Origin: an uncultured bacterium | GTDB lineage: Bacteria > Omnitrophota > Gorgyraeia > Zapsychrales > Aceulaceae | Direction: 5' to 3' | Length of the DNA stretch: 64,000 nucleotides | NCBI GenBank assembly: GCA_937930175.1 | Contig: CALGLP010000015.1 | Span: 68,174-132,173, forward strand | Shown here: positions 2,812-58,131 of the stretch, one piece after another | How the letters are laid out: each line of letters starts with the position of its first letter | Numbering within the stretch: position 1 is the stretch's first letter | Notes under the pieces: model-generated | What the model was told of the DNA's origin: nothing | The model's input: only the letters and a program-made list of their open reading frames with translations | Database searches by the model: none | Made by a program: the position numbers and the translations under genes

Positions 2812-5800
2812 TTATTGGATGGCTAAACTGCACCCTGCGTTCACCTTAATGTGATATCCCTCGCCTGGCTTAAAATTCCCGATCTGATTAACCCAAGTGC
2901 CGTTGACCAACGAAATTGTATGATTATGTTGATCGATCACTTGAATTAATTGACCAGCATCAATAAGCGGTTGTAAAACTGTTATGGCCTCCTGCTCCTG
3001 TATTGCAGGGAATCCCATGATATTCCATCCTTGATTCAACAGCAATGTCTGAGGGTAGGCAAGTGCTGAGCCTGCGATATCTAAGCTTGCCGGCGTGCTC
3101 AACTTAATTTTATAGCCTTCGCTAGGGTTCATTTGACCAATAGTGTTGAGGTTATATGCTGGCCACAAGATTCCTCCATGATCATCCTGAACCATTTGCA
3201 CGATCCCCTGGCTGATCAATGGCTCTAAGATAGAGGCCATATTCGCATTCGCGGGCATGATGCTAAACGCCATGATATTCCAGCCGCTGTCCAACGCAAT
3301 ATATTGACTGGGGGTCATTGCAATCCCCACAAAATTCTGGATCTTATTTTCTTGAATATTCGTATACGTCATTTCTGGCGGCCCAAAGAGATACCAATAA
3401 GCATGCGGGGTCAAGGTGACATTGTCTCCGGCATTGACGATGAAGGTATGGGCCGGCCACTGAGAAACATCGACCGTAGTCACGGAACCATTGATATTAA
3501 CGTCAAGTGTTGCCCCCGGAATCAACTCGCCATAATTATCACTAATATCCGTATAGATATGATATGTCACAGGTGGTATAGTAAACGGCTCTCCGATGGT
3601 AAAGGTTGACCCAGCAAAACTTGTATCAACCGCCTGAACGCCCCAATAGTAAAGAGTGCCTGGAACAAGATCCTTCACCAAACAGCTGGTGGTGTCCGGC
3701 AAGACATTTCCCCGCTGAGGCCCAATTTGAGCGACCCTTCTAAAGCCACTGCCAAGATCAGACATGGGCGATACCCTATCAACAGAGCCTGGTGCAGTTC
3801 CGATGTAAATATTATACGAAAGTCCTTCTGATGGCGTTTGCCCATCCATGGATTTCTGCCAGCTCAAAGTCACGTTGTTAGACAAGGAGCTTGTTGTCAA
3901 ACTACAAGGAGCTGATGGAAGCGTGTTCGCGGAAATATTAGAAACATTGCGATAGATCCGCGTCAAACGCGTAAGACCAAAATCCATAAAGACTAAACCG
4001 CTCATCGCCAAATCCAGGCGTCCATCTTGATTAAAATCACCCCAAACAAACGCATAATCGTCTACGTCCTGTATAGGCAGGTCACAACCAATATCGACGA
4101 ACAAGCCGTTCTCTTGATTCCTGAAAATATACTGAGCCACTTCCAAATCAAGCCGTCCGTCATTATCAAAATCTCCCCAAGAAAGGCTTCCAACCTTGTC
4201 ACCACATTCCGTGTAAGCATAAAGCGTAAAGACACCTTCTCCGTTATTTTTATAGATATAGAGAGCGGTGCCAGACGATTGATAAGTTGTCGTTCCGCTC
4301 ATCGCCAAGTCCAGGAGACCGTCATTATTAAAATCTCCCACAGCAAAACTTCCCATCGAAACTCCTGTCAAGCCAGCGTTCATATCCGTAAAAGTACTAT
4401 CGCCATTATTACGATAAATCCTTGTTAGACGGCCTTCGGAAGGATTATTCCCGCTCATAACAATGTCCAGGTATCCGTCATTGTCAAAATCCCCTAACCC
4501 AAAAGAAGCCTGCCAAAGCACAGGAAAACTAACGTTCGCATCTGTAAACGTTCCATTCCCATTGTTAAGAAAGATGCGGACAGCGTCATCCGCTGAACTG
4601 CTAGACGATTTGACAAGCAGCGCGACATCTAAATATCCGTCATTATTAAAATCCCCTGCAGCGACCAAGCCTCCACCTGAGAAATCTTCTGTTCCAGGCA
4701 ATCCGGCCGCAATATCTGTAAAAGTTCCATCGGTATTATTTCGGAAAATAGCCGTTCCACTCTTTGGTGTTTGATTGGGATAATAAAACCGGATAACGAG
4801 ATCCAGCCATCCATCATTATTAAAATCCCCCCACACCAAACCATTCTCTATCGCCCCTGGCAAATCAGCTTCAATATCCGTAAAAGTGCCATCAGCATCA
4901 TTACGATAAACCTTGGTGAATCTTTCATCGTCTGAATTTTTACCGCTTACAGCCAGATCCAGAAAGCCATCATTATTAAAATCACCCCAAGCCAAAGAGC
5001 TCTGAGAAGCCCCTTCAAGCCCTGCGTCAATATTGACAAATGAAAACGTTTTGCTGACGGAAATCTGAAAAATGATCTGCACCTGATACCCTTGAGCTGT
5101 GTTCACGCTTAGCGCAAGGGGGATCGCTTCCCCGGGTTGAGCATCCGCAGACACCGTGATCTCAAAGATATCGGGTAAGATCGCAAAACCTACTGATCCC
5201 GTGGCAATAGCGCCATAATACGCCTGGCTTGCCAAGACGGAAACATGCGGGCTCTGCGAAGTCAAGACCGCGCTAACATCCGTCAGCGGATCAACGGAAA
5301 GCGAACTATTACGCAGCCCAAAATTGATCTTCACAGACTCTCCGGGATTGATCGCCCCATTATTATTCCCCCCAACACTATCATCAACGACAAAACTCTG
5401 AAAATGCAAGCTATAATATGGCGCCGGCTGTGACACAAGGGTCGCTAAGGCATTCACGCGGCCGTAGCCAAAATAAATATCTTTACCCGCCTCTCCAATA
5501 TCATCAACGCCCTGGCGTAAAATGCTGCGCAGCTCCAAATTGCTAAGCTCAGGCCGATGCGATAGCGCAAGCGCGGCAACGCCAGCGACATGCGGACAGG
5601 CCATAGATGTTCCACTCAGATAAAAATACTCTCCCCCCACAATACGGCTTGGGTAATTGATCGCGAAAAATGAATCTTCCGCCAACAGCGAAAGCACGCC
5701 AACTCCCGGCGCTGAAACTTCGATCTTGTCCCCATAATTCGAAAAAGATCCCTTTTGATCATCCGAATCTGTAGCGGCAACGGCAATGACACTTTCATAA

Positions 5801-54528: not shown

Positions 54529-54861
54529 TAGGCAAAAAATAAAGGACTATAGATCCCCTCTATAGTCCTTTGTCCTTTTCATGTTCTCTGTATGGCTCCG
54601 TTAAAAAAATGTTACAAGATTGATTGAATACGCTTATGAATTTCATTTTTTTATTATTTTTACTATATTTTTTTTAACACACATAAAATCCCATGTCAAT
54701 CATTTTTAAATAGAATGTCATGATAACAAATCAAAAGAATATACCAATAGATATTCTTTTTTTCAAGAAGGTTTTTTTCAACGCGTTGCCTCGCATGAAA
54801 TGTTACCATGTCCGCTGAGATTGTCTTTCTTTGGCAACAGTCTTGAAGAATCACCCAGGGC

Positions 54862-55068
54862 TGAACGGCGTGCTGGCATTGTCCTCTCGCGAATTTTCTA
54901 GCCCTCAGATTTCCTTCATTCCTTTTTAGTCAGATCTGGGGGCTAGGACTGACTCGATTTTCCTTAGTCTAAAATTAGATGAAATCGAGACGTCTCACTT
55001 TCAGCAAATCTTATATTAAGGATGAGTGAGGCGTTTGAACGAAGGATAATGCCAGCACGCCTCATACA
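54862..55068 (+). ncRNA. Candidate structured small RNA of unknown class (about 195 nt), inside a 575-bp ORF-free gap
   Basis: An 18-bp closing helix pairs 54867-54884 with 55044-55061. It encloses three hairpins: 54898-54910/54934-54946, 54953-54960/54982-54989 and 54991-54999/55025-55033. Three of the four helices carry a G·U wobble that is only valid on the plus-strand transcript. No ORF of at least 20 codons is present. Confidence 0.45.
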
Positions 55069-55110
55069 AACAAGGACTTGTTCAGTAACCTTTATTAATA
55101 AGTCAACGGG

Positions 55111-55779
55111 TTAGCGCTTTTGATCCACGCCCCGACACGGGCAGAGGGCGCGAATCACGCATTGCGAGCAAAAAGGCGAGATCGGTTTGCACACATTCTG
55201 CCCCCATAAAACAAGGAGCACATTATATTCAATCCAGAAACGTTGAGGGAGTTTTTTACGCAGTGCCATCTCTGTTTCATCCGGGGTTTTGGTTTTTACG
55301 TAGCCCAAGCGATTAGAAATGCGATGCACGTGCGTATCGACACAGATCCCAAGCTTGCCAAATCCTTCGGTCAGCACAAGATTGGCGGTCTTGCGTCCCA
55401 CGCCCTGCAATGTGAGAAGCGTATCAATATCATCAGGAACCTTAGACTGAAATTGATTCATCAAGACGCGACAAACACTTTTGATGCTCCGAGCCTTGGT
55501 GCGATAAAATCCAACGGGAAAGATTGCGCGCTCGATCTTAGCAAGGCTCAACGTTAAGAAATCCTGCGGACGGCTTGCAAGTGCAAAAAGTCTTTCCGAA
55601 GCAGGAAGGGTTGTTGTATCCTTGGTGCGCTGGCTAAGCATGCACGAGATCAAAACAAGAAAAGGATCATGCCAGCGCTTGCTGATCATAGTTACGGAGG
55701 GATCATCAAATTTCTTCACGGCCTTGCGAAGAATGTTGACAATCTTTTCAATGCGTTTGTTATCGGCTGATAAAAGCAT
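55111..55779 (-). CDS. nth: Endonuclease III (DNA glycosylase/AP lyase)
   Basis: HhH-GPD (LQGVGRKTANLVL, DTHVHRISNRLG) and the [4Fe-4S] loop CKPISPFCSQCVIRALCPC. Confidence 0.9.
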   Translation of the reverse strand: MLLSADNKRIEKIVNILRKAVKKFDDPSVTMISKRWHDPFLVLISCMLSQRTKDTTTLPASERLFALASRPQDFLTLSLAKIERAIFPVGFYRTKARSIKSVCRVLMNQFQSKVPDDIDTLLTLQGVGRKTANLVLTEGFGKLGICVDTHVHRISNRLGYVKTKTPDETEMALRKKLPQRFWIEYNVLLVLWGQNVCKPISPFCSQCVIRALCPCRGVDQKR

Positions 55780-55796
55780 AATGGTATCTTATAAAA

Positions 55797-56025
55797 AGTA
55801 GCAAGTAGAAAGTAGATAGAGTAGATAAAGTAGAGAGAAACTAAAAAACAAAGAGAAAAAAGCAAAGAGAAAAAAGAAACAAGAAAATAATATTTAAATA
55901 AGGCGGATAAATCTCTTATCTATATCTTTTTTCTATTCTTTGTCTTTCGTCTTTAACCTCCTATCTCTTTCTACTTTCTACTCTCCCTACTCTCTCCTTT
56001 ATCTACTCTATACCCTTCTCTCTAA
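55797..56025. repeat. Quasi-palindromic intergenic element built from GTAGA/TCTAC short repeats
   Basis: The 5' arm tagagtagataaagtagagag (55817-55837) pairs with the 3' arm ctctctcctttatctactcta (55990-56010) over about 21 bp. The about 150-bp core is purine-rich and mirrors into a pyrimidine-rich half. Each arm holds 4-5 copies of AGTAGA or TCTACT. Confidence 0.55.
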
Positions 56026-58035: not shown

Positions 58036-58087
58036 GAAAAGATAACACAAAACAGCGCAGATTTAAAGTTGTACTTTAAATCTGCGC
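58036..58087 (-). terminator. Rho-independent terminator downstream of the giant gene
   Basis: Perfect 14-bp stem GCGCAGATTTAAAG-ttgta-CTTTAAATCTGCGC followed on the minus strand by TGTTTTGTGTTATCTTTT. A partial third copy of TTAAATCTGC lies at 58011. Confidence 0.7.
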
Positions 58088-58131
58088 TATAATCACCTTT
58101 TTAAAATTTTTTCTAACACCCTTGACTTGGC

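Follow-up and report, generated by a model that had tools for sequence, protein, structure and literature searches.

Results

The intergenic region between nth and the ATP-grasp gene

We have analysed a stretch of 64,000 nucleotides (hereafter the window), in which nth and a Ddl-like ATP-grasp gene, both on the minus strand, are separated by a non-coding gap. The ATP-grasp gene is followed downstream by a lysine-2,3-aminomutase-type radical SAM gene and then by a P-II gene. The features of this region are as follows.

55111-55779, minus strand: nth (endonuclease III)
54700-55110, no strand assigned: insertion-bearing stretch, from alignment with L208, L008, L009, L011 and L210
54733-54760, no strand assigned: A+T-only perfect 10-bp hairpin with a T-run after it on either strand, from an inverted-repeat search
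54670-54699, minus strand: sigma-70-like promoter TTGACA-N17-TGTGTTAAAAAA, with the -35 box at 54699-54694
54530-54669, minus strand: A+T-rich ATP-grasp leader of about 135 nt, from a terminator scan
54582-54547, minus strand: mini-ORF after GGAG, MKRTKDYRGDL*
54571-54541 and 54540-54534, minus strand: terminator-like hairpin and T-run, ending 4 nt before ATG 54529
54529, minus strand: start ATG of the Ddl-like ATP-grasp gene

Since the ATP-grasp gene starts at ATG 54529, the gap covers 54530-55110 (581 nt). The earlier note had described an ORF-free gap at 54536-55110 (575 bp). Its statement that the gap holds no ORF of 20 or more codons was mistaken, as the ORF list contains ten of 21-52 aa (for example 54696-54854 on the minus strand, 52 aa). 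The ORFs that cross the element described below cannot be conserved, because its internal sequence differs among homologous copies. Across the whole gap, contig DAIMJH010000005.1 of GCA_036722365.1 (Candidatus Omnitrophota) is 100% identical to the window.

The promoter next to the ATP-grasp gene is 90-93% identical in L008 and L009 (blastn, gap positions 118-179), and the same leader layout is found in about 25 Omnitrophota loci (L008-L041, L050, L051 and L208 among the places seen). In the consensus, GGAGA is followed by a mini-ORF of 2-15 codons, often with an M-K or M-N start, and by a hairpin AGGRACC...GGTYCCTT with T6-8 that ends 3-25 nt before the ATG and leaves no room for a promoter after it. 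The leader stem covaries among these loci (GGGACC/GGTCCC, GGAACC/GGTTCC, GGGGCC/GGCCCC and GGACTATAG/CTATAGTCC). This is the layout of a putative attenuator or riboswitch expression platform; no Rfam family matched the leader. The A+T-only hairpin at 54733-54760, which sits between the insertion and the ATP-grasp promoter, may be the end of the nth transcript or a bidirectional terminator, judging from its inverted repeat and T-runs. Between a DUF4143/AAA_14 ATPase gene and a 1531-aa gene, at 58054-58088 of the window, we saw a further hairpin, whose stem of 16 perfect base pairs (AGCGCAGATTTAAAGT/ACTTTAAATCTGCGCT) is capped by a 3-nt loop.

Predicted fold of the element

The structured element in the gap, which we call E, is composed of a closing helix and three hairpins. 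Its parts are listed below.

54867-55061, plus strand: core of E, from the fold, z-score, helix list and covariance model R1
54867-54891, plus strand: 5' arm, the 25-nt signature GGCGTGCTGGCATTGTCCTCTCGCG, identical in L141 and with one change each in L211 and L220
54867-54885 with 55043-55061, plus strand: closing helix P1, 19 bp, with a G·U pair at 54881/55047
C54886, plus strand: bulged C between P1 and P1b
54887-54889 with 55040-55042, plus strand: P1b, 3 bp
54896-54948, plus strand: hairpin H1, 17+2 bp
54953-54989, plus strand: hairpin H2, 9+5 bp
54990-55034, plus strand: hairpin H3, 11+5 bp
55062-55072, plus strand: 3' flank TCATACAAACA, shared with the paralogue of the same MAG, where it reads TCAAACAAACA

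On the plus strand, 54867-55061 has a minimum free energy (MFE) of -92.7 kcal/mol (z -9.5), compared with -49.1 +/- 4.6 for dinucleotide shuffles, and none of 200 shuffles folded as well. The minus strand reaches -74.6 kcal/mol (z -6.5). By these energy calculations the flagged fold is real and very stable, far beyond chance. The closing helix enclosing three hairpins in a four-way junction, as proposed in the earlier note, is thus confirmed; the anatomy given there was right in kind, with helix lengths (18, 13, 8 and 9 bp) that were too short, the actual values being 19+3, 17+2, 9+5 and 11+5 bp. The strand bias that had been read from three G·U pairs is likewise borne out, with a larger count: the plus strand carries nine G·U pairs and zero A·C oppositions. 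R1 scores the element at 114 bits on the plus strand versus 34 bits on the minus strand. L002 carries a population SNP (55056 C>T) by which a G-C pair of the plus strand becomes G·U.

Long-range inverted repeats are few in the 64 kb, and the element is one of them. A sliding MFE scan with a step of 40 nt under-called it, since no window of that scan held both arms. Rfam 15 gave zero matches at the gathering threshold over the whole window. In E-value mode, which covered four regions, only noise lying outside the element appeared at E<=10, and L211, L141 and L021 returned nothing meaningful. Accordingly, the lack of resemblance to tmRNA, RNase P, SRP and 6S RNA noted earlier extends to every Rfam family. 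There were also zero matches in phage and plasmid collections (distant-mode blastn) and in viral contigs (pattern scans).

Absence of the element at the nth site of relatives

Eighty loci around nth homologues were fetched, about 60 of them labelled Omnitrophota or 'uncultured Planctomycetales' and the others belonging to different lineages. Neither blastn nor nhmmer found the element in any of the 80, and R1, applied to the window, about 60 nth loci and other fetched Omnitrophota loci (70 sources), found no copy at nth loci besides that of the window. Five relatives retain the nth context and are without the element, namely L210, L208, L008, L009 and L011, whose nth is 83%, 82%, 76-77% (L008 and L009) and 71% identical to that of the window. 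In L208, L008, L009 and L011, nth is followed by the ATP-grasp gene and then by the aminomutase gene; L210 is a short contig that extends from nth only to the promoter. The distance from the nth stop to the -35 box is 411 nt in the window versus 76-112 nt in these relatives, which corresponds to about 300-335 extra bases in the window. The exact ends of the insertion cannot be set because the flanking A+T-rich spacer is not alignable.

Judging from these alignments, the element is a lineage-specific insertion at nth. The syntenic relatives that do without it rule out an RNA gene conserved at this site, be it a housekeeping RNA or another. The earlier note had held that an RNA gene would be contradicted if relatives had no homologous intergenic segment; none was found at the syntenic site, but genome-wide this does not apply, as copies of the family exist elsewhere.

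On the other side of nth, between YjeF_N and nth, the window has a 228-nt gap (55780-56007) where relatives have 1-4 nt. In it, about 95 nt of polypurine sequence and a matching polypyrimidine tract enclose a short A+T loop, and the whole forms one long imperfect, H-DNA-like hairpin (-72.3 kcal/mol, z -5.3, minus strand). As this gap is also absent from relatives, structured insertions specific to the lineage lie to either side of nth. In L010, an unrelated long palindrome lies downstream of nth (about 4640-4730).

Copies of the element at a second locus

A metagenome scan with an 18-mer of the arm listed at least 120 matches, mostly chance single ones. Among these listed matches L141 was the only true relative, and no full-length parent element or IS carrying the arms was present. 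Together with the window copy, four distinct copies are known, the other three of which lie at one site, between dtd and a gene for a Hel308-like helicase.

L141, 1809-1921: 113 nt, between dtd and the Hel308-like helicase gene, one rod-like hairpin
L211, 2248-2359: 112 nt, on DAIMJH010000003.1 of GCA_036722365.1, dtd/helicase site
L220, 1303-1414, opposite strand: dtd/helicase site of a third species, 75 bits

GCA_036722365.1 therefore has two E loci, at nth (DAIMJH010000005.1) and at dtd/helicase (DAIMJH010000003.1). The helicase of the latter contig is 89% identical to its homologue in L141, and three further assemblies have the L211 sequence without a difference. L220 and L208, the latter of which is without the nth copy, were obtained from one JGI sample. 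In L212, a more distant relative, only 24 nt lie between dtd and the helicase gene, which represents an empty site. R1 detected no further copies in the 64-kb window and 22 kb around L211, nor any in a total of about 500 kb belonging to some 65 further Omnitrophota; in the roughly 86 kb of the window species (window and L221) there are two copies, one of which was found through homology. The E family is previously undescribed, has a low copy number in the sequence covered and was found in one clade of Candidatus Omnitrophota.

The copies measure 112-195 nt, have no ORF in common and neighbour nth, ATP-grasp, dtd, Hel308-like helicase and RecO genes. Near none of the four copies did we find a transposase, RAYT, integrase, reverse transcriptase or Y1/HUH gene. 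Inspection of the four copies revealed no direct repeat indicative of a target-site duplication, the insertion ends being uncertain, and no conserved promoter or terminator motif was seen around them.

The helicase gene has its own conserved promoter, TTGACA/TTGAAG-N17-(TG)TTACAA (L141 1945-1986, L211 2445-2500, L213 985-1021, L220 1585-1623). As it lies about 10 nt before the ATG and no Shine-Dalgarno sequence is present, the helicase mRNA would be near-leaderless; the ATP-grasp ATG is likewise without a Shine-Dalgarno sequence. We rejected the idea that the element is the helicase 5' UTR, since this promoter is located between the element and the ATG. In L213, an unrelated long palindrome (about 925-990) lies just upstream of the helicase promoter and overlaps it.

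The four copies share their ends and differ inside. The 5' arm has two variable positions over the four copies (92-100% identity), and the first 25 nt of the L141 copy equal window 54867-54891 exactly, with a complementary 3' arm. The 3' arm is far more variable, and most of its changes retain G·U pairing. Among the 22 closing pairs, 13 are invariant and six show one-sided wobble changes; there are no double changes, and four cells are unpaired among five sequences. The terminal inverted repeats measure 19-22 bp, and what they conserve is their sequence, beyond the capacity to pair. At the 3' end, L211 2331-2370 matches window 55033-55072 at 85% (blastn), including 11 nt of the 3' flank. The window copy has three internal hairpins and the other copies have one each, which resembles H1 in L220 (78% over 79 nt, arm included), H2 in L211 (with two compensatory pairs) and, weakly, H3 in L141. 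Either a three-hairpin ancestor suffered differing losses, or different variants were inserted at one hot spot.

These copies bear on the proposal that E is a structure evolved locally at the 3' end of the nth mRNA, as a terminator or stabiliser, or simply a chance palindrome, both of which we consider very improbable. E starts 50 nt past the nth stop, and its minus strand also folds strongly. However, of its two strands the one that folds better runs antisense to nth, neither strand has a U-tract after the helix, relatives do without it, and the homologous copies upstream of other genes largely refute a role specific to nth. Chance is excluded by the z-scores and by homology.

Module X, an adjoining structured element

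In L141 and L220, a structured module of about 130 nt, which we call X, adjoins the 5' end of E.

L141, 1660-1796, minus strand: X
L220, 1434-1564, plus strand: X
L021, 406-562, minus strand: X-like element (model R2, 36.8 bits), stand-alone, in a distant Omnitrophota locus
Window, 54819-54834, plus strand: possible remnant of the X outer arm, AGATTGTCTTTCTTTG against AGATTGTCTTCTTTG in L141, a weak match (15/16 in local alignment)

Within its closing helix, X has inner hairpins and a conserved helix with the strands AGGACG/CGUUCCU. Between L141 and L220 it is 87% identical over 176 nt, running into the arm of E, and of its 39 predicted pairs none is broken and two are compensatory. The X-like element of L021 has a different closing helix, of 21 bp, and its inner stems covary. 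L211 retains only the distal arm of X and the window at most the 16-nt trace. An outer repeat of L141, T1 (1630-1657), can pair at 23 of 28 positions with the 3' arm of E and so bounds an X+E composite. X favours folding on the strand opposite to E. Only about 12 nt separate the 5' ends of X and E, too little for a pair of ordinary promoters pointing away from each other and hard to square with two divergent RNA genes of the usual kind.

X and E are inverted as one block between L141 and L220. This matters for another explanation, in which E would be an inverton whose 19-bp inverted repeats are invertase sites flipping the 157-bp core. Inverted repeats do flank an intergenic segment, the orientation in L141 and L211 differs from that in L220, and short-read contigs break at 55074 and 54973. 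Against this, the inverted unit is the whole X+E block including the arms and not the core between them, the core contains no promoter, no invertase gene is nearby, the 55074 break lies outside the repeat and not at its inner edge, and neither the G·U bias nor the presence of three near-perfect hairpins inside the core is accounted for. All five assemblies covering the window element have the same orientation. We consider that flipping by an invertase is very unlikely.

As to the contig breaks, three independent short-read contigs (L003, L006 and L007) end exactly at 55074, a single base outside the shared 3' flank; another (L219) ends at 54973, in the H2 loop. They may reflect strain or population heterogeneity at the element. 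An origin from k-mer-length repeats was rejected, as the two known copies differ too much.

Strand bias and conservation

The strand preference seen in the window recurs in all copies. The sense and antisense MFE values of the four copies are -92.7/-74.6, -56.9/-52.5, -71.4/-57.4 and -57.3/-42.4 kcal/mol, and the better-folding strand always begins with GGCGUGCUGG, even in the inverted L220. Over the four copies, 22 G·U pairs stand against 3 A·C oppositions (binomial p 1.6e-4, a value to be read knowing that the copies are non-independent and that MFE prediction favours G·U). With DNA parameters, the same strand is favoured (-44.4 vs -37.7). Because the bias also appears under DNA parameters, it points to selection on one single strand and not specifically on RNA. 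Accordingly, of the plus-strand RNA convergent to nth that the earlier note proposed, the selection on one strand is upheld by the four copies, but RNA as the selected form is not.

Between the three species, the 4-fold sites of the flanking helicase and dtd genes are 43-52% identical, which is near saturation. Measured against these sites, the arms and X are conserved far above neutral expectation. This conservation fits a host-level function at least as well as a recent insertion. Covariation statistics are weak with four distinct E members.

These data are most relevant to the main rival of a modular insertion, according to which the copies would be stand-alone genes, few in number, for structured small RNAs read from the sense strand (plus in the window). 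The closing helix with its bulged C would then be a protein-binding platform, the hairpins would be exchangeable, as in the Y RNA/Ro system, and the nth copy would be a gene duplicate. On the one hand, all four copies fold better on the same strand whatever their neighbours, the G·U excess follows that strand, the L002 SNP keeps pairing on the plus strand only, and the 5' arm is nearly invariant next to genes whose synonymous sites are saturated. The compensatory pairs in H2 versus L211, the intact pairs of X with their two compensatory changes, and the retention of the dtd/helicase copy in three species also agree with an RNA. On the other hand, no conserved promoter or terminator and no Rfam match was found, and nearly all Omnitrophota sampled lack the element, as does the nth site in the closest relatives. 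Whole hairpins are lost or swapped from one orthologue to another, compensatory changes are missing from the closing helix, which includes the four unpaired cells, X folds better on the opposite strand without room for divergent promoters, and the strand bias holds with DNA parameters. We consider a small RNA family possible, but clearly short of an even chance.

A related and somewhat more tentative proposal covers both modules. E and, separately, X could be new classes of protein-bound structured RNAs restricted to Omnitrophota, which move or duplicate as small gene cassettes, so that RNA genes would behave in the way of mobile elements. It is equally tentative that such RNAs would consist of a sequence-conserved closing helix carrying interchangeable hairpins, kept by purifying selection despite saturated synonymous sites. 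While looking for known motifs we also rejected a sigma-54 promoter in the arms, as the GG-N10-GC spacing misfits, and a kink-turn or tandem G·A junction, which is not conserved in L141.

The persistence of the bias with DNA parameters would also suit a single-stranded DNA substrate of recombination or transposition (attC, IS200/IS605 or REPIN type), on one strand of which a distantly encoded tyrosine or HUH enzyme would act. Conserved ends, a variable and sometimes branched centre, a conserved bulged base in the closing helix and a unit that is inverted and relocated between relatives are in line with such a substrate. Nevertheless, we judge it improbable, since the arms contain no attC core sites (RYYYAAC/GTTRRRY) and are not palindromic themselves, unlike REP sequences, the copy number is low, and no cassette array, integrase or RAYT is found near any copy.

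Discussion

Comparison with known systems

Streptococcus pneumoniae and S. suis carry BOX elements, which have boxA and boxC ends, a variable number of boxB modules and terminal inverted repeats, measure 67-637 bp, occur in more than 100 copies per genome and produce target-site duplications (PMC3049150). A stem-loop is predicted when they are transcribed; they are intergenic, cluster with other repeats and vary in module number between strains (PMC3049150). E resembles BOX in its paired conserved end modules, its variable number of independently folding inner modules, its intergenic position, its similar size and its neighbourhood to another structured repeat family (X). In contrast to BOX, which repeats one module type in tandem, the three internal hairpins of E are mutually different, only two copies per genome are known, no target-site duplication was seen, and the conservation of E spans species whose synonymous sites are saturated. 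No relationship in sequence is known, the likeness being one of architecture; homology to boxA, boxB or boxC is unlikely considering the different phylum and G+C content. In this architectural sense, the pneumococcal BOX element fits as the nearest analogue of E.

REPINs, which consist of inverted REP arms, each a short palindrome, around a variable spacer and occur in tens to hundreds of copies beside a RAYT gene (PMC3116915), are a second analogue. E shares with them conserved inverted arms, a variable spacer, a long hairpin in ssDNA or mRNA, an intergenic location, vertical inheritance and long persistence. It differs in its 25-nt arm without an internal palindrome, in having no RAYT or HUH gene near its copies and in carrying up to three internal hairpins. 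Conserved inverted arms and a long hairpin are likewise known from REP/BIME, ERIC and Correia elements.

MITEs resemble E in being non-coding and below 300 bp, in their terminal inverted repeats, in presence or absence between relatives and in internal deletion derivatives with the same ends. However, several points argue against a classical MITE: the low copy number, the lack of a target-site duplication, of a cognate IS and of a nearby transposase, the better conservation of the 5' arm than of the 3' arm, and the above-neutral conservation. The strand-biased fold differs as well, and its G·U bias (22 vs 3) is not required by a double-stranded DNA transposon.

Three structured systems of other kinds have similar layouts. 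Y RNAs and bacterial YrlA, which act with Ro (Rsr), are about 100-200 nt long and have an end helix with a bulged nucleotide, a variable interior and several paralogues. E shares the conserved end helix with a bulge and the variable inner part, but has no Rfam Y_RNA match; to our knowledge, Y RNA genes do not behave as insertions that are present in one species and missing from its near relatives. In retron msr-msd ncRNAs of about 150-250 nt, a closing helix made of terminal inverted repeats surrounds two to three hairpins, a layout like that of E, but no reverse transcriptase lies beside any of the four copies. Integron attC sites are strand-specific folded sites with conserved ends, extrahelical bases and a variable, sometimes branched centre. 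E has these traits, but the R''/R' cores (RYYYAAC ... GTTRRRY) are absent, its arms reading GGCGTGC...GCACGCC, and it occurs as single elements between housekeeping genes, with neither a cassette array nor an integrase.

Proposed nature of the element

We propose that E is a new, BOX/MITE-like modular palindromic insertion element, of which the window copy is the largest known, and we consider the chance that this is correct to be about even. The gain at nth, the second locus, the turnover of modules, the inversion as a block, the lack of promoter and terminator motifs and the clustering with X fit such an element, as far as sequence comparison can tell. In other Omnitrophota, unrelated palindromes occupy equivalent sites (L010 and L213), as does 55780-56007 in the window.

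If E is such an insertion element, either E alone or an X+E composite with outer inverted repeats would be copied into permissive intergenic sites, and a trans-acting enzyme recognising the conserved arms may carry out the copying. After insertion, a single-stranded form, RNA if transcribed or otherwise ssDNA, would take up the cloverleaf. Given its place after the nth stop and ahead of the promoter that serves the next operon, E could affect the stability or termination of the nth 3' end or give rise to a plus-strand antisense transcript. Any effect of this kind would not come from a dedicated housekeeping RNA.

Implications

In summary, in this study, we described two new families of structured elements, E and X, with the covariance models R1 and R2. 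For the annotation of the locus, the 581-nt gap is to be read as a conserved regulatory leader to which an insertion has been added. The combination of a G·U bias with a very low folding energy, as in E, calls for caution against taking such features as proof of an RNA gene. Omnitrophota are uncultured, and their non-coding repertoire is almost unknown. If E is mobile DNA, it would be, as far as is known, the first BOX-like modular repeat outside Streptococcus, and it could mark assembly breaks and differences between strains in these MAGs. If it is an RNA, the invariant 25-nt arm would be a handle for finding its protein partner.
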